Assembly (NCBI GenBank): GCA_934590355.1
Contig: CAKTOX010000001.1
Coordinates: 69,249-133,248 of the forward strand
Reading direction: 5' to 3'
Source: an uncultured Oscillospiraceae bacterium
GTDB taxonomy: Bacteria; Bacillota; Clostridia; Oscillospirales; Oscillospiraceae
DNA: 64,000 nt
Shown here: one piece after another, positions 1,189 through 63,986 of the stretch
How the letters are laid out: every line of letters begins with the position of its first letter
How positions within the stretch are numbered: position 1 is the first letter of the stretch
Program-made: the position numbers and the translations under genes
The notes under the pieces: generated by a model
The model's database searches: none
Seen by the model: the letters and a program-made list of their open reading frames with translations, nothing else
What the model was told of the DNA's origin: nothing

Positions 1189-1276
1189 GCGCGAGTGGTG
1201 GAATTGGCAGACTCGCTAGATTCAGGTTCTAGTGCTCACTCCGGGCGTGCGGGTTCAAGTCCCGCCTCGCGCACCA
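1189..1276 (+). tRNA. tRNA-Leu (anticodon CAG)
   Basis: Acceptor stem GCGCGAG/CTCGCGC, anticodon arm CTAGA-TTCAGGT-TCTAG, long variable arm (class II), T-loop GGTTCAAGTCC, encoded CCA end. Confidence 0.9.
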
Positions 1277-16327: not shown

Positions 16328-16626
16328 GCGGCCTTTGACAAGACTGCACACCCAACTTCGAATAATGCCATATGCCCGCCCCACCGGCAGCCGGCTCAGA
16401 GCCGGCACCCTCGCGGCACACGAAAAGCACCGCTTAATGCTGCTCGGTTCCCCGCCTGACATGGTTCACGGGTTTCCGTTGCGCGAGACCGGCTCGTCAA
16501 CGCTGCTTACCGGAGTCAGACGACACATGACAGATCCTATGTTGGGAATTCATTCCTGCTGTAGCGGATTGCAGGTTACAGGGCACCGCTGGCTCCCCAA
16601 CTAGTGCAGCCTTGTCAAAAGCCGCG
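16328..16626 (-). ncRNA. ffs: signal recognition particle RNA, long Bacillus-type (with Alu domain)
   Basis: Minus strand reads GGGGAGCCAGCGGTGCCCTGTAACCTGCAATCCGCTACAGCAGG (Alu domain, close to B. subtilis scRNA) and GTGAACCATGTCAGGCGGGGAACCGAGCAGCATTAAGCGG (domain IV with GGAA loop); terminal stem GGCTTTTGACAAGGCTGCAC/GTGCAGTCTTGTCAAAGGCC; directly upstream of dnaX; ends +/-5 nt. Confidence 0.85.
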
Positions 16627-16718: not shown

Positions 16719-16794
16719 GGGCCCGTAGCGCAGCTGGGAGCGCGTTCGGTTCGCATCCGAGAGGTCGAGGGTTCGAATCCCTTCGGGTCCACCA
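16719..16794 (+). tRNA. tRNA-Ala (anticodon CGC)
   Basis: 76 nt; acceptor GGGCCCG/CGGGTCC with the G3:U70 alanine identity pair; anticodon loop TTCGCAT; T-loop GGTTCGAATCC; encoded CCA. Confidence 0.9.
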
Positions 16795-32918: not shown

Positions 32919-34016
32919 TCAAAAGCCTAATTTAATGAGGTTTCTGTCGTTTGCAAAGCCGCTCATTTCCGCGACGAAGAGTATCTCATCGACGCCGTAG
33001 TCTTCAATAAGCTGCTGGGTCGAGCCCGCAAAATAGCGCATATCGAGCATGATTATCGTTTCGTAATCCGCCGTGAGCATCGGTGCGAGGCTGTTGGCAA
33101 ACGAGTCCTTTATCATGAGAAGTGTTTTGCCGTTTGTGCAGCCGCCCGTTATCACGGTCTGGCCGTAGTTACCGCCGAAAAAGACCTTGTACTTATCCTT
33201 TTCATTCGCTGCCGCCATGTTATACAACGTCGATTCCTTGCCGTCGGCGGTGACGCTCACGCCGTCGGGCACTGCGGAAATATAGACCTTGTCGGGTCTT
33301 GCGGCGGGGTCAAGGGTCTTTGAATAGGTCGTGCCGAGGAAGGAGTCGCTGAAAAGCTCGGGCGAGGCCTTGTACGCGCCGTCGGGCAGCAGCGTTTTAT
33401 ACGCCGTGTGCGCTCCGTACCACGTCCAGTGGTGGTCGGTGCGGTAATAAAGCTGATGATCCTTGTTGTTGAGCATCGCCGAATAAAGGTCGGGCACGTT
33501 CACGCCCGGCAGCGCGTTCCTGACGGTTTCGTATATTTTCTGCGCGTCATACATCTGCGCGTGAGCGGGCAGCTTATCGTTCATGACCGTACCCGTTGCG
33601 GGCACGAGGAGCATCGTCGCCGGCACGCCCTCGTTCTTTTCGGTAAACTCCTTGACGAGGCCGAGGTTTCGCCTGAGCGTTTCGTCGTTAACATCGTCTG
33701 GAGTTATCTTCTCCATGTAATACCCGTCGCGGCCGAGATATGCGCCGCCTATGTCCTTGAAGCCGGCAAGCTTTTTTATGCCCGTGCCGAGGCGGGTCCA
33801 TGTATCGCGTGCGGGGAACTGGTCGGAAATATACGAGGTTATCTTCTCCTGAAACGAGCCTGAGAGTATGCTGTTCACGCTAAGCTCCGGCGCGGTTTGG
33901 AGCATACGGTTTTCGTTGTCGGAGAAGGTCTTATCCTCGCCCGCAAAGACGAGCACCGCCGGCAGCGCTATGACCGCGAGGAAGAGTGCGATAAGCGCAA
34001 TATGGAATTTTTTCAT
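32919..34016 (-). CDS. DHHW-family protein (MBOAT-associated extracytoplasmic partner)
   Basis: Signal-anchor MKKFHIALIALFLAVIAL and the name-giving motif YYRTDHHWTWYGAH; ATG 34016 lies 5 nt after GAGGTGA (the ORF track begins at GTG 34025 inside the RBS). Confidence 0.8.
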   Translation of the reverse strand: MKKFHIALIALFLAVIALPAVLVFAGEDKTFSDNENRMLQTAPELSVNSILSGSFQEKITSYISDQFPARDTWTRLGTGIKKLAGFKDIGGAYLGRDGYYMEKITPDDVNDETLRRNLGLVKEFTEKNEGVPATMLLVPATGTVMNDKLPAHAQMYDAQKIYETVRNALPGVNVPDLYSAMLNNKDHQLYYRTDHHWTWYGAHTAYKTLLPDGAYKASPELFSDSFLGTTYSKTLDPAARPDKVYISAVPDGVSVTADGKESTLYNMAAANEKDKYKVFFGGNYGQTVITGGCTNGKTLLMIKDSFANSLAPMLTADYETIIMLDMRYFAGSTQQLIEDYGVDEILFVAEMSGFANDRNLIKLGF

Positions 34017-34028
34017 AACACTCACCTC

Positions 34029-35429
34029 TTAAAATCTGAAGTACAGGAAGGGATTGTAGCTGTCGCCGATGAGGAACACCATACTGACGGCAAGCAGCAC
34101 AAGGGTGAGCACGCCGCGCACCGCAAACGCGCCCTTTTCGCCGAGCTTGTCCGTTGCGGTGACGAAAAGCCGCTTGGGAAGCTGAGTGGACGCAACGGCG
34201 CAGACTATAAGCAGCACGCCCTTCGTCGTCAGCCAGTACACGTCGAGCCCGCCGAGGGCACCGTTAGCGCCGAACATTGAGCCGAGGTACGGCAGCATCA
34301 CGCTCACGTCGTCGCTTGCGAAGATGACCCAGCCGATGACGATGAGAAACAGCGCATATATATGGCGGACGAATTTCGGGGTCTTGTCGAGCGCCTTGAG
34401 AAGAAACAGCTTTTCGACAAACAGTATCACGAAATAATACAGTCCCCACATGATGAAGTTCCAGCCCGCGCCGTGCCAAAAGCCCGTGAGCGACCAGACT
34501 ATCAGGAGGTTGAGCGCCTGACGCGCAAGGCCGCGGCGGTTGCCGCCGAGCGGAATATAGAGATACTCCTTGAACCACGTGCTCAGGGTTATATGCCATC
34601 TGCGCCAGAAATCGGTTATCGACACGGACTGGTACGGATAGTTGAAGTTCTCGGGGAACTTAAAGCCGAACATCTTGCCGAGGCCGATCGCCATGTCCGA
34701 ATAGCCGGAGAAGTCAAAATAGATCTGGAAGGTGAACGCCGCTGCGCCTACCCATGCGGCAAGCGCACCGCTCACGCCGCCCATCGCGTAAATTTCGCTC
34801 CACACCGCGCCTATCTGGTTTGCAAGCAGCACCTTCTTGCCGAGACCCACGACAAAGCGCATGACGCCCTCGGCAAACTCTCCGCTCATAACGCTGCGCT
34901 GCGCAAGCTGATCCTCAACGTCGGAGTAGCGCACTATGGGGCCCGCTATGAGCTGCGGGAACATGGTGATATACATACCGAAGTCGATGAGATTTTTCTG
35001 CACGCGCACGTCGTCGCGGTAAACGTCGATGGTGTAGCTCATTGCCTGGAAGGTGTAGAAGGAAATACCTATGGGCAGGGCGATATGCAGGAGGTCAAAA
35101 TTCCCGCCGAAAACGGCGTTAACGTTCGTGATGATAAAATCCGTGTACTTAAACACGCCCAGGAGCCCGAGGTCAATGATGACAGACAAAACGAGCATGA
35201 GCTTGAGCCGCTTTGTGTTTGCGCGGTTTTTATCCATGAGCCTGCCGAAAATATAGTTTACCAGAATGGAGAACACCATCAGCAGAACGTACTTCGGCTC
35301 ACCCCATGCATAGAATATAAGGCTGGCTATCAGCAGGAATAAATTCCTCCCCCTCTTCGGGCAGATATAATACCCCAATAACACAAGGGGAAGATATACA
35401 CAAAGGAAGATAGTGCTGCTGAATACCAT
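34029..35429 (-). CDS. MBOAT-family O-acyltransferase (AlgI/DltB-like)
   Basis: 466 aa polytopic; conserved WRRWHITLSTWFKEYLYIPLGGNR block with the catalytic His. Confidence 0.9.
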   Translation of the reverse strand: MVFSSTIFLCVYLPLVLLGYYICPKRGRNLFLLIASLIFYAWGEPKYVLLMVFSILVNYIFGRLMDKNRANTKRLKLMLVLSVIIDLGLLGVFKYTDFIITNVNAVFGGNFDLLHIALPIGISFYTFQAMSYTIDVYRDDVRVQKNLIDFGMYITMFPQLIAGPIVRYSDVEDQLAQRSVMSGEFAEGVMRFVVGLGKKVLLANQIGAVWSEIYAMGGVSGALAAWVGAAAFTFQIYFDFSGYSDMAIGLGKMFGFKFPENFNYPYQSVSITDFWRRWHITLSTWFKEYLYIPLGGNRRGLARQALNLLIVWSLTGFWHGAGWNFIMWGLYYFVILFVEKLFLLKALDKTPKFVRHIYALFLIVIGWVIFASDDVSVMLPYLGSMFGANGALGGLDVYWLTTKGVLLIVCAVASTQLPKRLFVTATDKLGEKGAFAVRGVLTLVLLAVSMVFLIGDSYNPFLYFRF

Positions 35430-35441
35430 GTCTTAACTCCG

Positions 35442-35921
35442 TTATTTCACAAATTCTTTGAATGCCGTTTCGGCGTTTTGGGGCGCGGCGCTCATGATGA
35501 GCAGCACGCAATCGCCCACGGTCTTAATGACGGCACTTTGTGCGCGCTCTACCTCGCCGGGGCTGTAGGTCTTATAGGTCCTGACGCGGCTGTCGACGTG
35601 CTCGCGCAGGCTCTGCTCCATAGCAGAAGCATCGGATTTGTCCTTGAGCTGCACGACCGCAATTTCATACGCGCTGCCGTCGGCGGAATACGCCAAAAAA
35701 TAGCCTGACACTTTATTATACTCCAAGTCGGACATATATGAAAAGGCTTTTTCGGCATTTTCTTCCCAACTTCCCGTGACTTTCATCTCCGGCAGTGTCT
35801 TATCCGCGCTTATCATGCTCTTTTCGAGCTCATACATATCGATTTTCTGCGTTTTTTCGCCGCAGGCACACAAGCCGAGGCAAAGCGCCGCCGCGCACAG
35901 AAGGCAGAATATTCTTTTCAT
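35442..35921 (-). CDS. DUF4358-like lipoprotein
   Basis: Lipobox LGLCAC|G after MKRIFCLLCAAA; about 135-aa mature domain of the kind usually found beside MBOAT/DHHW genes. Confidence 0.55.
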   Translation of the reverse strand: MKRIFCLLCAAALCLGLCACGEKTQKIDMYELEKSMISADKTLPEMKVTGSWEENAEKAFSYMSDLEYNKVSGYFLAYSADGSAYEIAVVQLKDKSDASAMEQSLREHVDSRVRTYKTYSPGEVERAQSAVIKTVGDCVLLIMSAAPQNAETAFKEFVK

Positions 35922-36997
35922 CAGCCCACCGCCTCGCTGCCGTTATTGACGCTTGCGCCGAACGCCTTGGTCACGGCGCTGTCTATTCTCTGCCGAGTCG
36001 CCTCGTCAAGTCCGGCCTCGGGGTCTGAATCGCCGCCGTTATCCTCGTAGTTTATATTGATGCAGAACACGTTCTCGCCGCCAGCCTCGAGCCATTCCCA
36101 ACTCAGGCTCACACTCTTATCCGCGGCAAAGGGTGCAGTCTCCTCGATCTTGTTCATTATAGCCTCGATGACGTTATATGTATCATCGCTGACCTTCTCG
36201 CCGAAGTCGAAGCTCAAAACGCCCTTATTAGAATCAATGGCGGCGCGAAGAAGCTCGGGAATGGTGTAAACGTCGCTGCACTTAGTTTTGTTCATATAGG
36301 CGTAATTATACTCATATCCGTCCGCGGCTGGGAAGAAATCGGTATTCCACTCCTGAGCGTTCATCATCGTCCGGTCACACACGTTAAAATGCGAGAAGTT
36401 GCCGCCCGGGGTGTCGGCGTAAATGTCGGTGTGATACCACTTGCCGTCCAATTTCACAAGATCCCACGAGTGGGAAAGATACGAATCGTGCACGACCATG
36501 CATTCGATGTTCATCATCTGCATGAAAAGCCTGAAGGTCGTGGCATAGCCCACGCAGACAGCGCTGTGATATTTGAGCACGCCATAGGGATTATCGACCT
36601 CACCCGTTTCGCTCTCGGGGATAACGCTCAGCGAATTTTCGTCAAAGCCGATGTTCGAGGTCATCCAGCGGTAGACCGCAAGCTCCTTTTCATAGTCCGT
36701 CATGCCGTCGGTGATTATCCCGTCAAGCACGCTCTTTGCCATGTCGAGCGTTTCCTTGTCCTTATCCGACAGCTTTGACGAATCGCCCGATTTATATGCA
36801 TCGGAGATCTGCGTCGTTGACTTTATCACATAGTCGCCTATGCTCACGTCGTTTTCCTGCGCAACGTCCTCGGTGTTTTCGTCATAGCCGTTTTCAAGCG
36901 CATATACCTTATAAAGCGTAAATACGTTGAGCGCCAGCAGCAAAACGAGCATTACCGGCGTCACAACACGCATGATTTTCGAGCTTTTTGTTTTCAT
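35921..36997 (-). CDS. membrane-anchored transglutaminase-like cysteine peptidase domain protein
   Basis: N-terminal TM helix; core YHSAVCVGYATTF (Cys), SHSWDLVKLDGKWYHTD (His/Asp); TGATG overlap with the downstream gene. Confidence 0.7.
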   Translation of the reverse strand: MKTKSSKIMRVVTPVMLVLLLALNVFTLYKVYALENGYDENTEDVAQENDVSIGDYVIKSTTQISDAYKSGDSSKLSDKDKETLDMAKSVLDGIITDGMTDYEKELAVYRWMTSNIGFDENSLSVIPESETGEVDNPYGVLKYHSAVCVGYATTFRLFMQMMNIECMVVHDSYLSHSWDLVKLDGKWYHTDIYADTPGGNFSHFNVCDRTMMNAQEWNTDFFPAADGYEYNYAYMNKTKCSDVYTIPELLRAAIDSNKGVLSFDFGEKVSDDTYNVIEAIMNKIEETAPFAADKSVSLSWEWLEAGGENVFCININYEDNGGDSDPEAGLDEATRQRIDSAVTKAFGASVNNGSEAVG

Positions 36998-53344: not shown

Positions 53345-54328
53345 TTATTCGCAGAATACTCCTCTGCTCTTTCTGAATGCGCTGATGCGCTCGTCGCGGA
53401 TGACGCCGTCCTTTATGACGGTCGCCTTCTTGAGTGATTCGGGGTATTCGTCAAAGTCCTTTTCGACGATGGTGTCGATGTAGTTTGCAATGCCCTCGCT
53501 GAGAACCTTCGTGACGGTGATGGGGTACATTGCGGGGGTGTTGTCAACGGCGTAGTGGATAACTCCGTCAACGGTGTAGACGGGGTCGTCGATGGTCGTC
53601 GGGTGAGAGGTCTCAATCTCAAGATAGGGGTCGCAGCTCACATCGATGATGAGCGTGCCGGGCTTCATTTTCTTGAGATCCTCCTTGTAGATTATCCTGT
53701 CCGTGCGGGAGGTGTCCCACATGACGCAGTTTATGAGCACGTCGTAATCGAACATATTCTTGCGGAAGAGCTGCTCGAGGCGGTGGCTGTAAACATCGAC
53801 CTTTGCGCCGAGGCCGTGCAGGATGCGCATTGCGCCCTTTGCGGTCTGGCCGTTGCCGAGGATGGCCACGCGGGTGTCATAGGGCATCTTGCCGCAGTAG
53901 CGGAAGGCCTGCATGACGGCTGCCTCGCCCGCGACCTCGCGGTTGCGGTAGAAGATATAGCGGCCGTGCTCGAATATCTCCTCCCACGCGATGACGGTGT
54001 GCTTTTTGCGGATCATGTCGCTTGTAAAATCAATATTCTGCACCGCGTGCGCCCAGCCGAACATTATCTTGCTCCGGCTTATCTCGTCAAGGTAGTCCGC
54101 GTCGCCGAGCTTAACGTCGGTGATGACGTCGCAGGCAAGAGCCTGCTCGCGGGAGACGATGTTCGCACCGTGTGCGCGGTACTCCTCGTCAAGAGCGCCG
54201 ACCGCCTCGCCGTAGCCCTCCTCAAAAAAGAGCTTATCGACGTTTTTTATCTTATCAAGCTGCTCGGGCAGCAGCGCGCGGCGGCCCTCGCCGTTTTTGT
54301 GGCTTATGAGAAATCCTATCGTTTTCAT
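53345..54328 (-). CDS. AlaDH/PNT-family NAD(P)-dependent enzyme, N5-(carboxyethyl)ornithine synthase-like
   Basis: 327 aa from ATG 54328; ERRALLP N-terminal motif, Rossmann ILGNGQTAKGA; the alternative ATG 54355 overlaps the upstream stop. Confidence 0.55.
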   Translation of the reverse strand: MKTIGFLISHKNGEGRRALLPEQLDKIKNVDKLFFEEGYGEAVGALDEEYRAHGANIVSREQALACDVITDVKLGDADYLDEISRSKIMFGWAHAVQNIDFTSDMIRKKHTVIAWEEIFEHGRYIFYRNREVAGEAAVMQAFRYCGKMPYDTRVAILGNGQTAKGAMRILHGLGAKVDVYSHRLEQLFRKNMFDYDVLINCVMWDTSRTDRIIYKEDLKKMKPGTLIIDVSCDPYLEIETSHPTTIDDPVYTVDGVIHYAVDNTPAMYPITVTKVLSEGIANYIDTIVEKDFDEYPESLKKATVIKDGVIRDERISAFRKSRGVFCE

Positions 54329-54348
54329 ATCTTGCTTTTCCTTTCCGT

Positions 54349-56598
54349 TTACCATTTTTTCAGATCGTACCTTTTGGCCTTGAGCGCGAGCTTATCGCGG
54401 AAGAAGGCCTTGAACTCCTCCGAGTGCTCCGCGACCTTGTGCAGATCCTGATGTATGTTTATCTCGATTATCTTGAAGCCGTCGTCGGTTATCGCAATGT
54501 CAAAGCCGAGGTATTCAAGCTCCGGCATGAACCGGCATATATCCGTTATGCCCTTTTTCATGAGCTCCCAGTTGGGCACCGTGCCCTCTATCTCGACTCC
54601 CGTGTCCGGATGTATCGGACAGGGCGTAAAGACGTGGTTTATTATCTTCTGCGGGCAGTAGTAATGTCCCGTGGGTATGTCGATCTTCGCGCAGATGCCG
54701 CCGTAGCCGACGTTGTCGGTGAAGCCCGTGGAGGAGGAGCCGATGCGCATATAGGTCTGCATGATCTTCGGCTCGTATGCCGTCTGATTTACGACCGCGA
54801 CGCGGATCGTGTTGACGGAATAGGGGTAAATTTTCTTGAGCTCGCGGTGCATAAAGAGATACTCGGTGACGATATAAATGGACTTAAACTCCGATATCAT
54901 CGCAACTATCTCGTCCTGCGTCATTTCCTTGCCGTTTATGAGATATTTTTCGCCGTCATACTCCATGCGGTAGAAGCCGTCGCCGTGGGTGCCGGAGGAG
55001 GGCTTGAGCGCGAGCAGCTTTTCGCGGCGCAGCAGGCGGAACAGCTCGTCAAACGATGCGCCGAAGCCCTCGGGAATATCCTGAAGCGCCTTTATGCACG
55101 TTTCGCCCTGCATTTTTATTATGTCGTAATAATACTTGGCGAAATACTGCTTATACGGCTCAAAGACAAATCTCGTCGTCGTTTTGTCGTTTATCCAGAT
55201 CTGATAGTCGTTATTTATTCTGTTGAGCCAGTGATACTGATAATCGGACAGGAAGCTTTTATAATTATCCTTTGTGAGCCCGTACTGCTTTATTCTGAAC
55301 GAGAGGAAGCCGCGCTTATAGCACCATAGCTTCTGCGCAAGCGTCGTGTCCTTGTTGTGGCGCAGATCGTCCCAAACGGAGGTGAGCCAGAGCTTTTCCA
55401 TGTAGGGGCGCATTCCCGGGCGGCAGAAGTGTCGGACAAATGCCTTGTAGCGCTTGTACTTAAACGCCTTGAACCACTTTTCCCTCGTCACGACGACGGT
55501 CTCGCGCTTTTTCTCAAGCCGTTCGAGTAGGAAATCGTTGAGCTGCTTACTGTGCGCGACGGGAGGCAGCTCGGGGTTTGTGTCAACGGAGTCGATTATA
55601 AAGCCGTCGCGCGTCGGGATAATGCCGACGGAGAAGTATTCGATCTCGCTTATAAAGCGTGCAAGGCGCGTGACCTCGGCGCATATTTCGTCCCAGCGCT
55701 CGATTTTTTCGCCGTCTGCGACGCCCTCGCGGGAGACCGCGCGGCAGCTCTCCTTACCGTCAACGAGCTTGGTTTCGTAAAAGTCCAAAAGCCGTGTCGA
55801 GCTCAGCTTCTCGTTTGCAACGTAGATGCGCAGCATCCTCGCCTCCTGCGGCTCGACATTGTACGGCTCTGCTATGACGTAGCCGTATTTAAGGGTAGAA
55901 ATAAGCTCATAGAGGCTATCCTTATCGTAGCTGTCTCGCTTGCAGGGATTTTCCTCAAAGTCCTCGGGCAGCTCCTCGGGAAGCTCGGTGACAAGATACT
56001 CCCTGTCGTACCGGCCGCCCGCAAGCTCCATGCGCGCGCGGCTGAGCTCGGCGGGGAGCAGCTTATATTCGCCCTGCCCCACGCGCACGATCCTGTACGC
56101 GCTGCGGTAGGCGGAAAATCTGTCGGGGCGGATTATGAGCTCGCCCTTTTCCTCAAGCAGCTTTATAAAATCGTCGTAATTTTCGCCGTCCGAGCGCGAA
56201 ACGGTGTCGATCGGGAGAAATATCTTTTTCTCCTCGCGCTCTATGATATTAAAATACAGCCTCGGCAGATGCTCGCGGTAGTCGACGAGAACCTTGTTTG
56301 CGGTCACAAGATCGCGCACCCACTTGGTGAAGCTGTTGTTAAACGGCTTAAGGTACATATAATCCAGATCCGTTATGTAATTCGTCTCGGGATTATTTTT
56401 AAGATCGTACTTTGCGATGCTGTCGGAGAAATACTTATGCTGATGCGCCCATTTCTTATCCGCCCTTGAAACTCCGTTGTCGGTCTCGAGATCCTTTACC
56501 GTCTTTCGATAATATGAATTCGCAAGTCGCCTCGAATAGCCCTGTCTGAGCCAGGGTCGGATAAATATCTCGCGCTTTACGCGGCCTATTATGCCCAT
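54349..56598 (-). CDS. didomain sugar-transfer-associated ATP-grasp (ATPgrasp_ST) protein: degenerate N-terminal copy + intact C-terminal copy
   Basis: 749 aa; C-half LALKPSSGTHGDGFY, TGFTDNVGYGGICAKID, ELEYLGFDIAITDDGFKIIEINIHQD; N-half retains only the fold markers (EIEYFSVGIIPTRDGFIIDSVDTNPE). Confidence 0.7.
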   Translation of the reverse strand: MGIIGRVKREIFIRPWLRQGYSRRLANSYYRKTVKDLETDNGVSRADKKWAHQHKYFSDSIAKYDLKNNPETNYITDLDYMYLKPFNNSFTKWVRDLVTANKVLVDYREHLPRLYFNIIEREEKKIFLPIDTVSRSDGENYDDFIKLLEEKGELIIRPDRFSAYRSAYRIVRVGQGEYKLLPAELSRARMELAGGRYDREYLVTELPEELPEDFEENPCKRDSYDKDSLYELISTLKYGYVIAEPYNVEPQEARMLRIYVANEKLSSTRLLDFYETKLVDGKESCRAVSREGVADGEKIERWDEICAEVTRLARFISEIEYFSVGIIPTRDGFIIDSVDTNPELPPVAHSKQLNDFLLERLEKKRETVVVTREKWFKAFKYKRYKAFVRHFCRPGMRPYMEKLWLTSVWDDLRHNKDTTLAQKLWCYKRGFLSFRIKQYGLTKDNYKSFLSDYQYHWLNRINNDYQIWINDKTTTRFVFEPYKQYFAKYYYDIIKMQGETCIKALQDIPEGFGASFDELFRLLRREKLLALKPSSGTHGDGFYRMEYDGEKYLINGKEMTQDEIVAMISEFKSIYIVTEYLFMHRELKKIYPYSVNTIRVAVVNQTAYEPKIMQTYMRIGSSSTGFTDNVGYGGICAKIDIPTGHYYCPQKIINHVFTPCPIHPDTGVEIEGTVPNWELMKKGITDICRFMPELEYLGFDIAITDDGFKIIEINIHQDLHKVAEHSEEFKAFFRDKLALKAKRYDLKKW

Positions 56599-56737
56599 TA
56601 TGCTGTGTCCTCTCTGCCATAATAAATTATAACAAATAATAAAAAGTTATATAATAAAATGAATTTCCGCATAGGTATCCATTTTAGTCTAAGTATTATA
56701 TTACTTATTTCGGCAAAATTCAACTTAATATAATGAA

Positions 56738-56766
56738 TTGCACATAATGTTGTTATATAGTATAAT
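56738..56766 (+). promoter_or_regulatory. promoter of the second ATP-grasp gene
   Basis: TTGCAC (56738-56743), 17 nt, TATAAT (56761-56766) in a 198-bp very AT-rich divergent spacer. Confidence 0.5.
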
Positions 56767-56796
56767 GATTAAATATCTTAAAATCGGAGTTTTCAC

Positions 56797-58812
56797 ATGA
56801 AAGCATCAAAACTTTTAAAAAGCGGCGCGCTGCTGTTTCGCGGCTTTACCATGGCAACGGCCGCGCAGTGGCTTTATCTTGACGGCATAAAAAAATACAA
56901 GCGTCCGAACAACATCGGCATGAGCGACAAGGAGATATTCTCCCTTCTGCCCTTTGACGCGAAATTCGACAAGCTTTTCGGCGACGCGCTCTCGCTGTCC
57001 TATGCTCTCGATAAGCACTCCGAGCTTCTGCCCGAGCGCTATTACAGTCTTCTCACCCGCGACGGAGAGCGCTTTATTCTCCCGCTCGAAACCGGACTTG
57101 AGCAGAGCCTTGACGGCGTCGTGAGCCTCATCCGCGAAAAGGGCGAGGTTCTCGTGGGCGGCGCATCCAACTCGGTCAAAGCGAAAAGCGCCGTGTATGG
57201 CTTTGACGGGGAGAGCTTTTTCGCTGACGGCAAAGCTCTCGGCGAGGACGAGCTGCGCGAAAGGCTATTAAGGGTGCCCGACGGTACGATAATAACCCAG
57301 CTTATCCGCTCGGACTTTGCGCCGACGCTGCACCTTGCGTTTTTAAACCGCGGCGACGCACCGGAGCTTTTATATTCCGTACTCACCGAGGAGGAGAGCG
57401 GCTGCGCGAAAAACTGGTACACCCAAAACCGTGAGCTGTCCCCCGTTTCCGAGGACGGCAGCTTTAACGGCGGCAGGATCGCGGATTTCGAGCGCATCAA
57501 AAACGAGCTGTGCGCGATAGCGGGCGAATTTTCCGAGCTTGAATACATGAGCTTTGCCGTGCGTATAACGCCCTCGGGCTTTAAGATACTGCGCGTTGAC
57601 ACCGGCGCGGACTTCACCTATCTTGAGCATTTTAACGACAAGGCCGCAAGCTTCATCCGCGAAAAGCGCCGCGCGAAGCCCCGCTTTGTGAGCTTTAAGC
57701 AGGCGCTGCGGATAATCGACCGCTACACATGGAGCATAAGAGCGAAGCGCCGCGGCTTCATGGACTATATGTACCGCGGCTGGAAAAAGGCGCTGCGCGA
57801 GGATAAGCGGGACAAATTCACGACCCGCGAGGAGAAAAAATGGGCTCACGAGCGCGGATTTTTCTCCTACCACATAAAGCAGTACGGTCTTACCGACGAT
57901 AACTGGCGCGAATTTCTCTCCGACCGCGATTACAAATGGCTGCGCCCCATAAACAACGACTACCGCAAGCTTTTATGGGACAAGGTCACCCTGCGCTACT
58001 GTCTGGACAAATACGCAAAATATCTGCCGGAATATTATTTCCACATCGTCCCGCGTGACGGAAAAATGCAGGTGCTCAAAATGCCCGACTGTCCGCAGTA
58101 CATAAGCCGCAGCCTTGAGGGCATCACGGCGCTGCTGCGGGAAAAGAAAATTCTCGCCATGAAGCCCACCGTCGGCTCGCACGGCATAGGCTTTTACAAG
58201 CTGCAATATGACGGCGAGAGCTACGTCGTAAACGGCGAGGCCATGGACGAGGCGCATATGCTCAAATTTCTCGCTGGGCTCAATGACTACTACAACATTT
58301 CCGAGTACATCGTCATGCACGAGAGCCTGCGCAGGATATACAGCGAGGTCGCCTGCACGGTACGCATAATGGTCATAAACCGCACGGGCTTTGACCCCGT
58401 CATCGAGAACGCATATTTCCGCATCGGTACGAAAAGCACGGGCTTTACCGACAACATAGGCTCAGGCGGCGTTTTCGCCTATGTTGATGAGAAAACCGGC
58501 TTCTTCCACGACGCGGAGGTCATAAAGGAGCACGTCATAACCCCCTGCCCCATCCACCCCGATTCGGGCGAAATGATCGAAGGCTACCTTCCGCATTGGG
58601 ACGAGGTGCTGCGCACGCTGCCGGAGCTGTGCCGATACATAAGTCCGCTTGAATACCTCGGCTTTGACGTCGTCATCACGGACGCGGGCTTTAAGATCCT
58701 CGAAATAAACACCCATCAGGATCTGCACCGCTACCCGACCTATAACGAAAACGTCCGCTCGTATTTTATGAATAAGCTCGCTCTCAAAAAGGCAGGCAGG
58801 AAGCTTTGTTAA
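56797..58812 (+). CDS. didomain ATPgrasp_ST protein (paralog of 54349..56598)
   Basis: 671 aa; C-half LAMKPTVGSHGIGFY, TGFTDNIGSGGVFAYVD, PLEYLGFDVVITDAGFKILEINTHQD; N-half ELEYMSFAVRITPSGFKILRVDTGAD without the lysine/glycine motifs. Confidence 0.7.
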   Translation: MKASKLLKSGALLFRGFTMATAAQWLYLDGIKKYKRPNNIGMSDKEIFSLLPFDAKFDKLFGDALSLSYALDKHSELLPERYYSLLTRDGERFILPLETGLEQSLDGVVSLIREKGEVLVGGASNSVKAKSAVYGFDGESFFADGKALGEDELRERLLRVPDGTIITQLIRSDFAPTLHLAFLNRGDAPELLYSVLTEEESGCAKNWYTQNRELSPVSEDGSFNGGRIADFERIKNELCAIAGEFSELEYMSFAVRITPSGFKILRVDTGADFTYLEHFNDKAASFIREKRRAKPRFVSFKQALRIIDRYTWSIRAKRRGFMDYMYRGWKKALREDKRDKFTTREEKKWAHERGFFSYHIKQYGLTDDNWREFLSDRDYKWLRPINNDYRKLLWDKVTLRYCLDKYAKYLPEYYFHIVPRDGKMQVLKMPDCPQYISRSLEGITALLREKKILAMKPTVGSHGIGFYKLQYDGESYVVNGEAMDEAHMLKFLAGLNDYYNISEYIVMHESLRRIYSEVACTVRIMVINRTGFDPVIENAYFRIGTKSTGFTDNIGSGGVFAYVDEKTGFFHDAEVIKEHVITPCPIHPDSGEMIEGYLPHWDEVLRTLPELCRYISPLEYLGFDVVITDAGFKILEINTHQDLHRYPTYNENVRSYFMNKLALKKAGRKLC

Positions 58813-58822
58813 CATTTTTCAG

Positions 58823-58851
58823 GTGACAAAGTCGTTTCGCCGTCGTATAAT
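58823..58851 (+). promoter_or_regulatory. possible internal promoter before the TagF-like gene
   Basis: GTGACA (58823-58828), 17 nt, TATAAT (58846-58851). Confidence 0.4.
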
Positions 58852-58887
58852 TGAGCGAACTATCAAAGGACATAAGATTGGAGTAAT

Positions 58888-60099
58888 ATGACAATTGCAG
58901 TTATTTTGCTGCGCTGGGTGATGAATTTCGTCTATTTCTTTCTGAAGCTCCTCCCCACCGACCGCAGCAAGGTGTTATTCCTCAGCCGTCAATCGAATAC
59001 AGCCACGGAGGATTTCATTTTCCTCGCCGACAGGCTCCGCGAGCTTTGCCCCGCAGTTAAGATCGTCATGATAACAAAGCGCGCGGACAAGGGGCTTTTG
59101 AGCCTGCTCGGCTATGCAGGAGCGACGCTGCGCAGTATGTATCATCTTGCGACGGCGCGCGTGTGCGTGCTCGATTCATACTGGCCCGCGGTGTCCGTGC
59201 TGCATCACAAAAAGCAGCTTGCCGTTATCCAGATGTGGCACGCCATGGGCAAGATAAAAAAATCCGGATATCAGTCGCTCGGCAAGAAATTCGGACGCAG
59301 CGACATGATAGCGCGCGAGATGCGTATGCACCGCAACTATGACGTCGTCATCGCCGGCGGCAGGGCGTTCAATCCCTTCTACTGCGCCTCCTTCGACATA
59401 AGCCCCGATATTCTATATAATGTAGGGCTGCCGAGGATGGATAAGCTGCGCGAGGGCGTTGAGGACGCAAGGCGCGAATTTTACGAGCGCTATCCCAAGC
59501 TGCGCGGCAAGAAGATCGTCCTGTACGCGCCGACCTTCCGCAAGGGGCAGGCGCTCGACCCGAAGGAGCTCGTGCGCGCCTTCCATTTTAACGGGGAGCA
59601 GGTGCTTATAATAAAGCGCCACCCCAACCAGCTTCTCGTCGTTGACAATCTTGCGCCGGCAATGACCTGCCCGGGTATGCCGACCTCGACGATACTTTCG
59701 GTGTGCGACTGCGTCATAACGGACTATTCCGCCATAACGATAGAGGCCGCGCTTCTCGGAAAGCCCGTGTACTTCTACCTTTTCGACTACGAGGACTATC
59801 TTGATCACAACGGGCTCAACGTCAAACTCTTCGACGAATTTCCCGACTGCATCTTCCTTGATCCGGAAAAGCTTGCAGACGCCATAGACAGCGGCGAATA
59901 CGACACGGAAAACTACCGGCGCTTCTGCAAAAAATATCTGCCCGACCAAAGCGGCAGAGCAACGGATAAGATCGCCGGACTTATAATCGACTGCATGGAG
60001 AGAGATAAACATGATGCGATTTCTGAGCAAATTGCTCGCCAAAATAAAATTGACGGTGCTGTGGATAGTGAGGATACTGTTTGCGCCCAATCACTTTAA
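58888..60099 (+). CDS. CDP-glycerol glycerophosphotransferase (TagB/TagF) family protein
   Basis: 403 aa; QMWHAMGKIKK, LYAPTFRKG, IIKRHPNQ, ITDYSAITIEAALLGKPV blocks typical of Glyphos_transf. Confidence 0.8.
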   Translation: MTIAVILLRWVMNFVYFFLKLLPTDRSKVLFLSRQSNTATEDFIFLADRLRELCPAVKIVMITKRADKGLLSLLGYAGATLRSMYHLATARVCVLDSYWPAVSVLHHKKQLAVIQMWHAMGKIKKSGYQSLGKKFGRSDMIAREMRMHRNYDVVIAGGRAFNPFYCASFDISPDILYNVGLPRMDKLREGVEDARREFYERYPKLRGKKIVLYAPTFRKGQALDPKELVRAFHFNGEQVLIIKRHPNQLLVVDNLAPAMTCPGMPTSTILSVCDCVITDYSAITIEAALLGKPVYFYLFDYEDYLDHNGLNVKLFDEFPDCIFLDPEKLADAIDSGEYDTENYRRFCKKYLPDQSGRATDKIAGLIIDCMERDKHDAISEQIARQNKIDGAVDSEDTVCAQSL

Positions 60100-61060
60100 G
60101 CTCCCGCTCTACAAAAGGATACATTACAGCATTTTCGGCGGCTACATGATAGACCAGGTCGCCATGTATGACTTTAAGCACAACGACGAAAAGCAGTACC
60201 TGTCCGAATTTGACTGGTACCGCTCGCGGTGCATAAACGACCCGTACAGCGAGATGCTCAACAACAAGGTCGTTTTCACGCAGATAATAGAGCGCTATTG
60301 CAGCACGCCGGAGATATACTGCGTCAAAAAGGAAAAGCGCCTTGCCGGAATGAACGGCAGGGTCATAAACGGCTATGACGACCTCATCGGTCTGCTGCAC
60401 GAGGTGGGGGCGTTTGTCGTCAAGCCCGTGCGCGCGGGCAAGGGCAAGGGCGTATACGTCGTTAAATATAACGGTCATGGCATAATCTGCAACGACGAGC
60501 CTCACACGGAGGCCGAGCTCGCCGCAAGGCTCGAGCACGACGAGGAGTGGCTCATCTGCGCCTATGCGCATCAGGCGGAATATCTCAACAAGCTCTATGC
60601 AAATTCCGCCAACACCCTGCGCATGATAGTCCTGCGCTCGGCGCAGACGAAGGAGTTTGAGCTGTGCTTTGCCGTGCAGCGCATAGGAGCGGCATGGACG
60701 GGCGCGGTGGATAACGGCAGCCGCGGCGGTCTTGTCGCAAACGTTGACATCGCAACGGGCGAAATGAGCCACGCGCGCACCCTGCATAATCTCACCGTTT
60801 ACGAGACTCACCCCGACACGGGTGCCGCCATCCGGGGCACCGTCATTCCGAATTGGCAGGCACTCAAGCAGGGCGTTCTCGACATAAGCCTCCGCTTTCC
60901 CTATCTTGACATCATCGCATGGGACATTCTCCCGACCGACGACGGCTTCACCGTTATAGAAGCCAACACCTCCTCGGGCGTCAACATCATTCAGCTTTGG
61001 GGACCGCAGCGCTACGGCAGGCTCGGTGATTTCTACCGCGAGCATGGGATAATAAAATGA
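60011..61060 (+). CDS. single-domain ATPgrasp_ST protein
   Basis: 349 aa; VVKPVRAGKGKGVY, GAVDNGSRGGLVANVD, YLDIIAWDILPTDDGFTVIEANTSSG; ATG 60011 lies 6 nt after GGAGAGAG and overlaps the TagF-like gene by 89 nt. Confidence 0.7.
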   Translation: MMRFLSKLLAKIKLTVLWIVRILFAPNHFKLPLYKRIHYSIFGGYMIDQVAMYDFKHNDEKQYLSEFDWYRSRCINDPYSEMLNNKVVFTQIIERYCSTPEIYCVKKEKRLAGMNGRVINGYDDLIGLLHEVGAFVVKPVRAGKGKGVYVVKYNGHGIICNDEPHTEAELAARLEHDEEWLICAYAHQAEYLNKLYANSANTLRMIVLRSAQTKEFELCFAVQRIGAAWTGAVDNGSRGGLVANVDIATGEMSHARTLHNLTVYETHPDTGAAIRGTVIPNWQALKQGVLDISLRFPYLDIIAWDILPTDDGFTVIEANTSSGVNIIQLWGPQRYGRLGDFYREHGIIK

Positions 61061-61653
61061 AATACGTCATAATGGCCGACGGCAAGGGCGGCAGATGGAA
61101 CAATTTCATGGGTCACTCGAAGCAGGAGATCCGCGTTTTCGGCGAGACCCTGCTTGAGCGCACGGTGCGCCTTGTGCATGAGTGCGACGAAAATGCCGAG
61201 GTCATCATCACCTCGCACGATAAAAGCCTTGAGATACCGGGCGCGGTGCGCTATGAGCCGAAAAACAACGTGCTTGAGATCGACCGCTTCACGGCCGAGC
61301 TCATAGGCGACGATATGTGCTTTCTCTACGGCGACGTGGTATATTCCGAAAACGCCGTGAAAACCATCGTTTCCGCGCGCGGCAGGGAGAGCATTTTGTT
61401 CTTTGGCAGCGAAAAAAGCATCTGCGCGGTGCTCATAAGAGACGGCGAGCTTTTCCGCGGGCTTTATCTTGAGATCAGGCGGCTTTTCACCGAGGGGTGC
61501 ATCGCGGAATGTAAGGGCTGGGAGGTCTATCACCTGTATGCGCAGCTTCCGCTGTGCTCGCGCGAGATAGGCAAAAGCTACGTCCTTCTCGACAGCTTTA
61601 CCCGCGATTTTAACACTCCGGAAGACTTTCTAAACTCCGAGTTCAAAAATTGA
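61057..61653 (+). CDS. small nucleotidyltransferase-like protein (MobA/LicC-like GT-A fold)
   Basis: 198 aa; N-terminal YVIMADGKGGRW resembles the GxGxR nucleotidyltransferase loop; ATGA overlap with the preceding gene. Confidence 0.4.
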   Translation: MKYVIMADGKGGRWNNFMGHSKQEIRVFGETLLERTVRLVHECDENAEVIITSHDKSLEIPGAVRYEPKNNVLEIDRFTAELIGDDMCFLYGDVVYSENAVKTIVSARGRESILFFGSEKSICAVLIRDGELFRGLYLEIRRLFTEGCIAECKGWEVYHLYAQLPLCSREIGKSYVLLDSFTRDFNTPEDFLNSEFKN

Positions 61654-61759
61654 TATGGAATTCTTAATAAGACTGTGTTATAATTGTGTGATTATATGGG
61701 CATTTTCGCCCTGCAAATATCATTATACACGGTCTTATTTTTTAAGGAGATAACGTTTT

Positions 61760-62527
61760 ATGACTTCAGACAAGACCAACCGCGGTTTTCTTCTTGTTGA
61801 GCTTATAAGGCGAGATTTTGTGAAAAAATACAAGCGCACTACCTTCGGCATACTTTGGAGTGCGCTTTCGCCGCTGTTTCTGCTGCTGACGATGGACGTC
61901 GTGTTCGGTACGTTTTTCGGCCGCAATATGCCGCACTACACCATTTACCTGTTTTGCGGCCTGCTGCTGTTTAACTACTTCGCCGCGGCAACGCGAAGCG
62001 CCATGCGCGTGTTGTATGACAATGCGCCCATTTACAGCAAGGTGCCCGTTCCCAAGCACTATTTTCTCATCTCGCAGAGCGTTGCGCAGTTTATCGATTT
62101 TCTCGTTTCGCTGCTGGTGTTTTTCATTTTCGTTGCGATCGACGGGATCGAGTTCCACACGCGCTTTTTCTACCTGCTCTACCCCATCGTATGCCTTTAT
62201 TTCATGAACTTCGGCATAGGGCTTTTCCTCAGCACCCTCTACATCTTCTTCCGCGACGTCAACTATCTCTGGCCCGTCGTGACGAGGATAATCATGTACG
62301 CCTCGGCGATTTTCTACGATGTTTCCATTCTGCCTGGCATCATGCGCAGGCTTTTGAACTGCAACCCGCTGTATATGTGCGTAAGCTACTTCCGCGAGCT
62401 TATAATCCACTCGACCGTGCCGAACATTTCAACGCATCTCGTGCTGGGTGCAATGGCGGCGTTCTGTATGCTCGGCGGCTGGTTTACCTACCGCATCGCG
62501 CGCGATAAGATCGCGCTGTACGTGTAA
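61760..62527 (+). CDS. tagG: ABC-2-type polymer export permease (TagG-like)
   Basis: 255 aa, six helices; N-terminal LLVELIRRDFVKKYKRTTFGILWSALSPL signature of teichoic-acid/O-antigen exporters. Confidence 0.8.
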   Translation: MTSDKTNRGFLLVELIRRDFVKKYKRTTFGILWSALSPLFLLLTMDVVFGTFFGRNMPHYTIYLFCGLLLFNYFAAATRSAMRVLYDNAPIYSKVPVPKHYFLISQSVAQFIDFLVSLLVFFIFVAIDGIEFHTRFFYLLYPIVCLYFMNFGIGLFLSTLYIFFRDVNYLWPVVTRIIMYASAIFYDVSILPGIMRRLLNCNPLYMCVSYFRELIIHSTVPNISTHLVLGAMAAFCMLGGWFTYRIARDKIALYV

Positions 62528-62537
62528 GGAGGGCACC

Positions 62538-63986
62538 ATGGAAGACAACAAGGTTCTTGTTCTTGACGACGTTTCGGTGCGCTACCGCAAGCAGGATTCG
62601 CGCTCAACCGCGGATATATTTAAGCGCATTCTCGGAAAAAGCCCCCGCTCCAACGAGTTCTGGGCGCTCAAAAACATCTCGTTCTCGCTTGAAAAGGGCG
62701 ATATGCTCGGCGTCATCGGCAAAAACGGCGCGGGCAAATCGACGATGATGAAGGCCATAAGCGGCACGCTCACGCCCGCCTCGGGCACGATAACGAAGGA
62801 AGGCCGCATCTGCGCTCTGCTCGAGCTCGGAACTGGCTTTGACCGCGAAATGACCGTGCGCGAAAACGTCTATCTGCGCGGTGCGTTCATGGGCTATTCC
62901 AGAGAATTCATCGACTCGAAGTACGACGAGATAATAAACTTCGCGGATATGCGGGAATTCCAAAACAGCCCCTTCCGCACACTTTCAAGCGGCATGAAAA
63001 GCCGCATAGCCTTCGCCATTGCAAGCATGGTGGAGCCGGATATTATAATCCTTGACGAGATATTCGCCGTCGGCGACGGTGATTTCCGCAAGCGCAGCCA
63101 GCAGAAGATGCAGAGCATCATCGACTCCGGCTACACGACGGCGCTCATGGTCTCGCACTCGATGCAAACCGTGCGTGAGCAGTGCAACAAGGTGCTTTGG
63201 CTCGACAAGGGCCGCATGGTCATGTTCGGCGACCCGAAAACCGTCTGCGACGCCTACGCCGAGTATCTCAACTCCGGCAAGCTGCCGCAGACGGAGGCGC
63301 TGCAAAAAACGCAGGAGAGCCCCCGCAACAAGCTCAAAAAGAGCAAGGGCAAGCTCGCCGCCGAGATCGCAGTCTACTTCATGCTCATCCTCGCCGCCAT
63401 AGCCGGCTGCTTCGTTTGGGCGCAGTATGACCTGCTCAAGTCCTACGTTCTCGCACAGAACCTCGACTCGGAGCAGATAATGCAGTCGGCGCAGAGCTAT
63501 CATTCCGAAATAGACCGGATGCTCGGAGCGGACACCTCGCGCTGGGACTACGAGATATTCACCGAGGGCGCGCAGAGGATAATTGCCGAGGAGGCGACCT
63601 ACACTGACGTCGCCAAGGAGGTGCTGCTCCAGTCCGGCAACCTCAGCCGTGAGCAGTACAAAAAGACGCTTGCCGCCGCCGAAATAGAGGCGATAAAATA
63701 TTCCCACATGGCGCGGCTGGACGCTCTCGTTGAGCAGATACGCGCGGAATTCGCAGCCCAGCCCGAGGGCAAATACCGCAGTCTCATGGTCTATGCCTAT
63801 CTCAATTGCGACAGGTTCTACGAGCTTGAGGAGGCCTGCGAAAACGACATGCAAAAGGTCATCGAGGAAATTCGCTCATTCCAGCGCAAGGCGGGCGAGC
63901 CGGAGGAGCTTGCCGACCACGTTTGGAACGCCTACAAGGCGGAGAAAACGTATCTTCTGTCATACTACTGCGTAAAGCTCAGGTAA
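62538..63986 (+). CDS. tagH: polymer-export ABC ATPase (TagH-like) with a TM helix and a ~190-aa C-terminal extension
   Basis: 482 aa from ATG 62538 (GGAGGG RBS); GKNGAGKST, LSSGMKSRIAFAIA, IIILDEIF; then AAEIAVYFMLILAAIAGCFVWA and a helical domain. Confidence 0.8.
   Translation: MEDNKVLVLDDVSVRYRKQDSRSTADIFKRILGKSPRSNEFWALKNISFSLEKGDMLGVIGKNGAGKSTMMKAISGTLTPASGTITKEGRICALLELGTGFDREMTVRENVYLRGAFMGYSREFIDSKYDEIINFADMREFQNSPFRTLSSGMKSRIAFAIASMVEPDIIILDEIFAVGDGDFRKRSQQKMQSIIDSGYTTALMVSHSMQTVREQCNKVLWLDKGRMVMFGDPKTVCDAYAEYLNSGKLPQTEALQKTQESPRNKLKKSKGKLAAEIAVYFMLILAAIAGCFVWAQYDLLKSYVLAQNLDSEQIMQSAQSYHSEIDRMLGADTSRWDYEIFTEGAQRIIAEEATYTDVAKEVLLQSGNLSREQYKKTLAAAEIEAIKYSHMARLDALVEQIRAEFAAQPEGKYRSLMVYAYLNCDRFYELEEACENDMQKVIEEIRSFQRKAGEPEELADHVWNAYKAEKTYLLSYYCVKLR

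Follow-up and report, generated by a model that had tools for sequence, protein, structure and literature searches.

A candidate locus for cytoplasmic assembly and export of an amino-acid-bearing wall polymer in an uncultured Oscillospiraceae bacterium

Wall polymers and the decorations that modify their charge govern phage binding, resistance to antimicrobial peptides and immune recognition, and such polymers are almost undescribed for the dominant gut Clostridia. Several described systems bear on how amino acids may reach a surface polymer. Mur ligases work on UDP-MurNAc before the transfer by MraY. The D-aspartate ligase Aslfm is an ATP-grasp enzyme, and enzymes of this type are also able to form esters, as exemplified by the D-Ala-D-Lac ligase VanA. 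In Campylobacter jejuni, the TupA-like ATP-grasp domain of Cj1438 amidates capsule glucuronate (PMC11800379). Surface glycans that bear amide-linked amino acids are well documented, with N-epsilon-(1-carboxyethyl)-lysine and ornithine among the residues known to be linked in this way (PMC10609480). Enzymes of the LicC/COG1213 type activate phosphoglycerate, phosphoglutamine and phosphocholine (PMC12275187). Here we analyze a locus at positions 53345-63986 of a 64,000-nucleotide stretch of DNA (hereafter, the window) from an uncultured Oscillospiraceae bacterium (contig CAKTOX010000001.1). The locus encodes three ATP-grasp proteins, a short TagF-like phosphotransferase, a 198-amino acid (aa) nucleotidyltransferase-like protein, a TagG/TagH-like ATP-binding cassette (ABC) exporter and a dehydrogenase-like protein. 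We propose, at a probability of about 0.5, that it is a cytoplasmic assembly and export line for a phosphodiester-linked wall polymer, or a substituent of one, that bears amino acids or a short peptide.

Proteins of the locus

An earlier reading of this DNA, made from its letters alone (hereafter, the sequence-only reading), had given coordinates for open reading frames (ORFs) of the locus. All eight ORFs exist at the coordinates given. Its ATP-grasp ORF at 60011-61060 exists, but public assemblies call the start at 60068, which yields a 330-aa protein instead of one of 349 aa. A cluster look-up returned no names for any of the eight proteins.

The assignment of three proteins to the Pfam family ATPgrasp_ST (PF14397) was borne out, with scores of 111.5, 98.6 and 138.9 bits for a 749-aa, a 671-aa and the 330/349-aa protein, respectively, against a cutoff of 31.4 bits. 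The motif set described for these proteins (K-P, a Gly loop, TDNxGxGG or DNGSRGG, and D...E-x-N) was found in exactly three domains. One is the C-terminal domain of the 749-aa protein (~aa 401-749; 54349-55398, minus strand; PF14397 match at residues 516-720), where K-P, the Gly loop, TGFTDNVGYGG and D...E-x-N are all kept. Another is the C-terminal domain of the 671-aa protein (57787-58812, plus strand), with intact motifs and 44.5% identity to the former. The third makes up the single-domain 330-aa protein (60068-61060, plus strand), hereafter the core ATP-grasp protein. The complete ATP-grasp catalytic set (Lys, Gly-rich loop and D/E...E-x-N Mg ligands) is present in each of them, and K119, D286, E298 and N300 of the core protein are invariant in 20 homologs.

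The N-terminal halves of the two large proteins (~aa 1-400 of the 749-aa protein, 55399-56598, minus strand; ~aa 1-330 of the 671-aa protein, 56797-57786, plus strand) are diverged copies of the same ATP-grasp domain, as revealed by blastp (~1e-20; 1e-20 to 1e-22 for the 749-aa protein against the C-terminal domains). The 749-aa protein's N-terminal domain retains neither the ATP-binding Lys nor the Gly loop, and its substrate loop and Mg triad are gone as well. That of the 671-aa protein has G in place of K, a deletion of the substrate loop and A/R/D in place of D/E/N. Because both N-terminal domains lack the catalytic set, the locus is predicted from its motifs to encode three active and two dead ATP-grasp domains.

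The AlphaFold model of the core protein (pLDDT 84) has LysX/ArgX, PurK, RimK, Ddl and a Streptomyces peptide ligase as its closest solved folds; VanA and the ATP-grasp kinase Asp1 are also among the matches. NCBIfam searches with the ATP-grasp proteins gave a sub-threshold match to a RimK-related glutamate ligase (TIGR02291). The model thus suggests a place for the core protein among carboxylate-amine ligases. None of the three ATP-grasp proteins matched the TupA-like family PF14305 at E<0.01, and sequence and profile searches of the PDB revealed no relative. No transmembrane (TM) segments are predicted in the three ATP-grasp proteins, the 198-aa protein or the dehydrogenase-like protein. The ligases being free of TM segments, ATP-dependent ligation must come before export.

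The 403-aa product of the gene at 58888-60099 (plus strand) belongs, as had been read from the sequence, to the TagF/TagB family (PF04464, 170.8 bits). Its closest solved relative is TarL (8va1, 2.5e-29). The catalytic His of TarL (H300, changed to N in the 8va1 mutant) and that of TagF (H444) line up with His118, which lies in the motif IQMWH118AMG. Residues 81-363 align to TarL 263-556 and are preceded by some 80 residues that include one hydrophobic helix, at residues 1-19; the protein consists of the GT-B catalytic domain only. Among NCBIfam models the primase TarB scored best, followed by TarL and TarF, all below threshold. N-terminally truncated TagF reportedly still polymerises in vitro. 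Polymerases are said to carry an additional N-terminal domain (PMC10901376), and this domain of TagF/TarL-type enzymes is absent from the 403-aa protein. The earlier designation of the protein as a polymerase is therefore sound as to the PF04464 transferase family and uncertain as to polymerisation, given the short length, the lack of the polymerase N-terminal domain and the better match to a primase.

The third component, the 198-aa protein (61057-61653, plus strand), had been described as a small GxGxR nucleotidyltransferase-like protein. Its fold agrees with this description, though the Pfam score for NTP_transf_3 is below threshold (18.9 versus 27 bits); a weak match to IspD was obtained too. 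Foldseek comparison of its AlphaFold model (pLDDT 86.6) retrieved PntC, MurU, RmlA, IspD, KdsB and IMPCT at a probability of 1.0 and TM scores of 0.55-0.71. G9-x-G11-x-R13, K22 and D93 are invariant in 25 homologs. A GT-A-like fold, G-x-G-x-R and conserved Lys and Asp, the hallmarks of LicC/IspD-like enzymes, are thus all found in this protein, and the model points to a place among small-molecule cytidylyl- or nucleotidyltransferases.

In a profile search covering 1.84 billion representatives, the 198-aa protein had 1418 relatives. Among the closest, three are fused to two-domain ATPgrasp_ST proteins, and the alignment with one of these fusions (P0484) covers residues 19-742 of the 749-aa protein. 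An Asp/Glu racemase is the fusion partner in another close relative (51% identity); in remoter ones the partners are glycosyltransferases, a sulfotransferase or a methyltransferase. An apparent 316-aa fusion (P0347) was disregarded, as it looks chimeric or miscalled.

The Pfam families of the exporter had also been recognised correctly: the permease gene (61760-62527, plus strand; PF01061, 55.5 bits) encodes a TagG/Wzm-like ABC-2 type protein with at least four hydrophobic segments, and the ATPase gene (62538-63986, plus strand; PF00005, 88.5 bits) a TagH/Wzt-like protein with one TM helix (aa 277-295) followed by a C-terminal outside domain of ~187 aa. The ATPase scored 183 and 165 bits with the NCBIfam TagH models, whose cutoffs are 538 and 320, and equally well with a galactan Wzt model.

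Conserved gene trio and gene neighborhood

In a scan with one genome per species, 232 stretches encode relatives of the core ATP-grasp protein, and 80 of these loci were examined. Genes for the TagF-like, core ATP-grasp and 198-aa proteins are all present in 71 of the 80. This trio is adjacent and co-oriented in 70 of the 71 loci, with median gaps of -32 and +1 nucleotides (nt); in the window the core ATP-grasp gene overlaps the TagF-like gene by 32 nt, and the start of the 198-aa gene overlaps the ATP-grasp stop by 4 nt. The arrangement persists at 47-50% identity in Eubacterium, Anaerovoracaceae, Lachnospiraceae and Coriobacteriia, and likewise in the cultured Emergencia timonensis, Anaerofustis butyriciformans and Collinsella tanakaei. 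One genome has the trio by itself amid housekeeping genes, flanked by ribF and a transglutaminase/PG-binding gene. We found no study of the trio in the literature searched.

A TagG/H-like exporter is encoded in ~55 loci and an LCP ligase in 12, and an alanine racemase gene lies beside the exporter in three. Other neighbors are genes for a Bac_transf initiating transferase, CapA-like PGA_cap proteins, CapB-like Mur ligases, TupA-like ATP-grasps and SerA/SerC-like proteins; one related locus has FemAB genes upstream of it. The genes for the two large ATP-grasp proteins are found in a subset of loci, and in some relatives tandem TupA-like ATP-grasps replace them. Very large PGA_cap (CapA-like) fusions adjoin the trio in L073 (5430-8660), L057 (11659-16659), L059 (9604-15512) and L083 (13850-16768); their fusion partners are BspA-type leucine-rich repeats with ATPgrasp_ST or a Mur ligase (CapB-like), or an acyltransferase with GDSL. 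In the Anaerovoracaceae loci L049 (105-4697) and L051 (3941-8596), the trio comes after PylC-, PylS- (class II aminoacyl-tRNA synthetase core) and PylD-like genes, then genes for a CobW-type GTPase and a PadR regulator; this appears to be a pyrrolysine-type cluster adjoining wall-polymer genes. The Pyl-like and ThrRS genes near the Anaerovoracaceae trio, as well as SpoVA genes, were judged to be conserved neighbors without a functional link.

Identical copies of the locus are present on human-gut metagenome contigs, including those from Hadza samples. The closest genome with the locus is an uncultured Oscillospiraceae metagenome-assembled genome (L007), at 97% protein identity. Seven further contigs (L009, L010, L017, L018, L019, L040 and L056) carry an Oscillospiraceae-type locus at 68-88% protein identity (50% for L056); the bins that they come from bear the labels Phascolarctobacterium, Escherichia coli, Bacteroidaceae, Collinsella aerofaciens, Hallerella and Alistipes. 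Mis-binning, rather than gene transfer, is the most likely explanation.

The sequence-only reading had left the gene at 53345-54328 (minus strand) undescribed. It encodes a 327-aa protein of the AlaDH/PNT family (336 aa from an alternative ATG at 54355) and is the last gene of a leftward operon, running in the same direction as the gene for the 749-aa protein and lying 20 nt past its stop. Both AlaDh_PNT_N and AlaDh_PNT_C were detected by Pfam, and the score against the alanine dehydrogenase equivalog, 105 bits, falls below the cutoff of 392. Homologs that are 74-77% identical are named N5-(carboxyethyl)ornithine synthase (CEOS) by both JGI and NCBI; the CEOS activity is putative. CEOS-like genes (74-76% identical) also lie inside Wzx/Wzy polysaccharide clusters (L091, 7001-8949; L092, 3589-5534; L097/L098, 4872-10178). 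In one of these clusters the gene is directly upstream of a TupA-like ATP-grasp gene; in another it has three ATPgrasp_ST genes on one side and a TupA-like one on the other, and a UDP-sugar dehydrogenase gene is nearby. The pairing makes the CEOS-like gene a candidate for the origin of the opine-type amino acids long known in O-antigens. A link between CEOS-type genes and glycan decoration was not found in the literature searched, and we infer it here from gene neighborhoods.

The locus had been thought to be AT-rich and to form a variable surface-polymer island. There is indeed a small dip in GC content (0.535 versus 0.556 elsewhere), the lowest among all 10.6-kb windows and ~2 SD under the mean, but no shift at the codon level: GC3 is 0.69-0.79 for genes of the locus and 0.71-0.79 for other genes of the window, with one outlier at 0.58. 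Since GC3 is unchanged, the dip reflects protein composition and the intergenic spacer and not foreign origin. The gene order from moaA to a fadD-like gene, between which the locus lies, is conserved in many related genomes. With GC3 unchanged and synteny conserved, a foreign-DNA island was rejected, and the reading as a variable island is not supported; what varies, at larger distances, is solely the complement of accessory ATP-grasps.

The divergent spacer between the two large ATP-grasp genes (56599-56796, 198 bp) is extremely AT-rich, as had been noticed, with a GC content of 0.237. Promoter-like -35/-10 pairs are present on both strands at 56695-56766, and the orthologous spacers of 17 related genomes keep both of them; the spacer is thus predicted from its sequence to be a conserved divergent promoter region. 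A ~38-nt AT-rich insertion at 56621-56658, absent from the orthologous spacers of 16 related genomes, holds a second copy of the GTTATATA(A/G)TA(A/T)AATGA word from the rightward -10 region. A riboswitch or other structured RNA in the spacer was rejected: no Rfam family matches within the locus, and the repeats are short promoter-like AT words.

Teichoic and Dlt genes were sought in the precomputed annotation of three overlapping stretches, which cover nearly the whole window, and of 10 kb downstream. In agreement with the sequence-only reading, no TagO, TagA, TagD or DltA/C/D is among the annotated genes of the window; nor is a TagO/TagA linkage-unit enzyme or a TagD/TarI-type cytidylyltransferase annotated in the downstream 10 kb. 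An MBOAT gene of the DltB family (34029-35429) reaches 157 bits, where the DltB cutoff is 375, and adjoins an ALGX/DHHW partner. It is part of a four-gene group (32919-36997, minus strand) encoding transglutaminase-core, DUF4358, DltB/AlgI-family MBOAT and ALGX/DHHW proteins, which has the look of a system for O-acylating a wall polymer. Beyond the window end the locus extends into genes for a FadD-like acyl-CoA ligase, a GDSL protein and DUF4358, so that a second DUF4358 gene, accompanied by a GDSL gene, follows the TagH-like gene. A Dlt analogue made up of these AMP-binding, GDSL and DUF4358 genes was considered and rejected; the AMP-binding protein belongs to the FadD-type acyl-CoA ligases, and there is no carrier protein. 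A few kb downstream of the locus lie MurT/GatD and racemase genes, with four unrelated genes between MurT/GatD and the locus.

Elsewhere in the window, the segment 2151-11169 contains three pairs of HGD-D family genes, six in all (2-hydroxyacyl-CoA dehydratase or activator-dependent dehydratase subunits), with genes for TetR and GntR regulators adjoining. The RNA genes at 16344-16609 (minus strand), 16719-16791 (plus strand) and 1189-1273 (plus strand) are a large bacterial signal recognition particle RNA (205.7 bits) and two tRNAs.

Proposed pathway and alternative readings

In the pathway that we propose, the 198-aa nucleotidyltransferase would convert a small phosphorylated head group, X-P, and CTP to CDP-X. 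The core ATP-grasp protein would then join X to an amino acid through an amide or ester bond, and the active C-terminal domains of the 671-aa and 749-aa proteins would add further residues, their dead N-terminal domains probably serving as built-in pseudo-dimer or substrate-holding modules. An opine-type residue, in the form of Orn or Lys bearing an N-(1-carboxyethyl) group, may be supplied or created by the CEOS-like dehydrogenase. With His118 as its base, the short TagF-like enzyme would take the phospho-head group off the CDP donor and pass it to a lipid-linked acceptor whose synthesis is encoded elsewhere in the genome, and the product would be exported by the TagG/TagH-like ABC transporter. 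By analogy with Mur ligases and MraY, we favor ligation on the nucleotide-linked precursor because of the nucleotidyltransferase fusions and the overlapping reading frames; in the alternative order, transfer by the TagF-like enzyme would come first and ligation after. A carboxylated head group such as phosphoglycerate, for which CpgD offers a precedent (PMC12275187), would suit chemistry of the RimK/LysX type.

Several points weigh against the proposed pathway. The nucleotidyltransferase call rests on a fold match at TM scores of 0.55-0.71 and a sub-threshold Pfam score, and PDB searches, a profile search included, gave no sequence match for the 198-aa protein. Neither a study of the 198-aa family or of ATPgrasp_ST/PF14397 nor a characterised member of the latter was found in the literature searched. 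The locus has no glycosyltransferase, initiating transferase, LCP or TagD/TarI-type gene, and the acceptor is therefore hypothetical. The CEOS-like gene adjoins the locus only in the nearest ~10 genomes and may be a metabolic neighbor. That it is a chance neighbor could be rejected in part: of five independent contexts elsewhere, three are clusters with glycan ATP-grasps, and the other two place it beside AzlCD or AzlD, with no glycan genes.

In the scheme put forward by the sequence-only reading, the TagF-like enzyme polymerises poly(glycerol- or ribitol-phosphate) and the ATP-grasp proteins esterify its hydroxyls with D-Ala or other amino acids, acting as an intracellular substitute for Dlt. 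This agrees with the PF04464 domain and its retained catalytic His, the TagG/H-like exporter, the alanine racemase next to it in three related loci, the lack of Dlt genes in the window annotation, and the capacity of ATP-grasps for ester formation (VanA is among the fold matches). Yet an ordinary CDP-glycerol donor is hard to square with a dedicated, novel nucleotidyltransferase that is always coupled, and sometimes fused, to an ATP-grasp; the nearest relatives, RimK and LysX, activate a bound carboxylate and not a free amino acid; the three ligases and the opine synthase hint at something beyond a single ester; and the TagF-like enzyme is without the N-terminal domain said to mark polymerases (PMC10901376) and has a primase as its best NCBIfam match. 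We hold this scheme to be unlikely. The absence of a glycosyltransferase gene and the primase-like size of the TagF-like enzyme would also fit a product that is mainly a poly-amino-acid or peptide chain, similar to poly-gamma-glutamate or teichuronopeptide, polymerised by the ATP-grasps on a single phospho-head-group primer and exported by the ABC transporter. The processive poly-Glu ligase RimK is among the nearest folds, CapA-like PGA_cap and CapB-like Mur ligases occur in related loci, sometimes fused to ATPgrasp_ST, and the fusion of a nucleotidyltransferase to an Asp/Glu racemase points the same way. No CapA/B-like genes are present in this locus, however, no result indicates processivity, and the trio also occurs alone without an exporter, which makes such a product improbable.

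Two further possibilities reassign the ATP-grasp proteins themselves. The core protein could be a small-molecule kinase that supplies the head group, similar to LicA (compare the ATP-grasp-containing glutamine kinase Cj1418), for activation by the nucleotidyltransferase and transfer by the TagF-like enzyme. It occupies a strictly kinase-like place in a three-gene "make, activate, transfer" module, the ATP-grasp kinase Asp1 is among its fold matches, and phosphoglutamine cytidylyltransferase is a known member of the LicC type (PMC12275187). But the NxxxGG-type loop and the closest families (RimK-related TIGR02291, LysX and Ddl) are those of amide ligases, and the racemase, Mur-ligase and CapA/B-like neighbors indicate amino-acid ligation, so we give the kinase only a slim chance. 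Slighter still is the chance that the ATP-grasps act on peptidoglycan precursors, forming a side chain or cross-bridge as does the D-aspartate ligase of Enterococcus faecium, with the TagF-like and ABC genes as mere neighbors. The Aslfm precedent, the FemAB genes upstream of one related locus and the MurT/GatD and racemase genes downstream speak for it. Against it, the TagF-like gene adjoins the ATP-grasp gene in 70 of 71 loci with overlapping reading frames, nucleotidyltransferase and ATP-grasp are fused in some genomes, and the four intervening genes separate MurT/GatD from the locus.

Our proposed pathway retains the protein families of the sequence-only reading and its general idea of Dlt-independent decoration by ATP-grasps, an idea supported by the soluble nature of the ligases and by the LCP, Bac_transf, racemase, CapA/B and TupA genes of related loci. 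An ester or amide on poly(glycerol phosphate), as specified in the sequence-only reading, becomes one of several possible chemistries. Its statement that such chemistry had not been demonstrated was too strong in view of Cj1438 (PMC11800379). Novelty would be limited to PF14397 and teichoic-type substrates and does not extend to ATP-grasp amidation itself. If the proposal is true, cytoplasmic ATP-grasp loading would be a second route beside Dlt, and the family ATPgrasp_ST would acquire its first function. Tentatively, and with more doubt than hope, we suggest that the trio may represent an unrecognised pathway widespread in gut Clostridia and Coriobacteriia. A new CDP head group (CDP-glycerate, for example, or another carboxyl- or amino-phosphoester) would be peptidylated on the nucleotide and transferred as a phospho-peptidyl unit, giving rise to peptide-bearing teichoic-type wall polymers of a new class, with D-amino acids and, in this genus, an opine. 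Because the trio occurs in the cultured E. timonensis, A. butyriciformans and C. tanakaei, the question is directly testable.

Comparison with known systems

Amidation of the C. jejuni HS:2 capsule (the C-terminal TupA-like ATP-grasp domain of Cj1438, with Cj1437, Cj1436 and Cj1435) resembles the proposed pathway in that a soluble ATP-grasp places an amine-containing group on a surface polymer in the cytoplasm, before ABC-type export, and in that dedicated enzymes supply the unusual amine (PMC11800379). Cj1438, however, belongs to PF14305 and the proteins of the locus to PF14397. The acceptor in C. jejuni is a glucuronate carboxylate within a glycan, whereas our locus has no uronic-acid or glycosyltransferase gene and its ligase is coupled to a TagF-like enzyme and a nucleotidyltransferase.

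With the wall teichoic acid systems of Bacillus and Staphylococcus (TagD/TarI, TagB/TagF/TarL, TagGH and Dlt) the locus shares the predicted logic of a CDP donor, a PF04464 enzyme with its catalytic His, an ABC-2 exporter whose ATPase carries a TM helix and an external C-terminal domain, and LCP ligases in related loci. It differs from them in that TagO, TagA, TagD and TarIJ are lacking from the window annotation, the nucleotidyltransferase is LicC/IspD-like, the transferase is primase-sized and amino-acid loading by ATP-grasps is predicted to be cytoplasmic, whereas Dlt is extracellular. The fusions and gene neighbors suggest an analogy to Mur ligases and MraY, in which serial ATP-dependent amide ligations, including those of racemase-derived D-forms, would take place on a nucleotide precursor before a phospho-precursor is passed to a membrane acceptor. 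The enzymes involved are different: ATP-grasp in place of the Mur fold, a TagF-like GT-B enzyme in place of MraY and CDP in place of UDP as the carrier.

For the nucleotidyltransferase, the nearest parallels are LicC/COG1213 and the Caulobacter CpgD/CpgA system (CDP-glycerate, ceramide diphosphoglycerate), where a small non-TagD cytidylyltransferase activates a non-sugar phospho head group; a carboxylated head group of this kind, phosphoglycerate, would offer an ATP-grasp a carboxylate to amidate (PMC12275187). There is no ATP-grasp partner in the Caulobacter system, and no similarity to the 198-aa protein was seen at the sequence level. Similar to the Lactococcus N5-(carboxyethyl)ornithine synthase, the CEOS-like protein is an AlaDH/PNT protein shorter than alanine dehydrogenase, and the CEOS name comes from two annotation sources. 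The residue that it may provide would have counterparts in the O-antigens of Providencia and Proteus, where opine-type N-epsilon-(1-carboxyethyl)-lysine amides on glycans are a known chemistry (PMC10609480).

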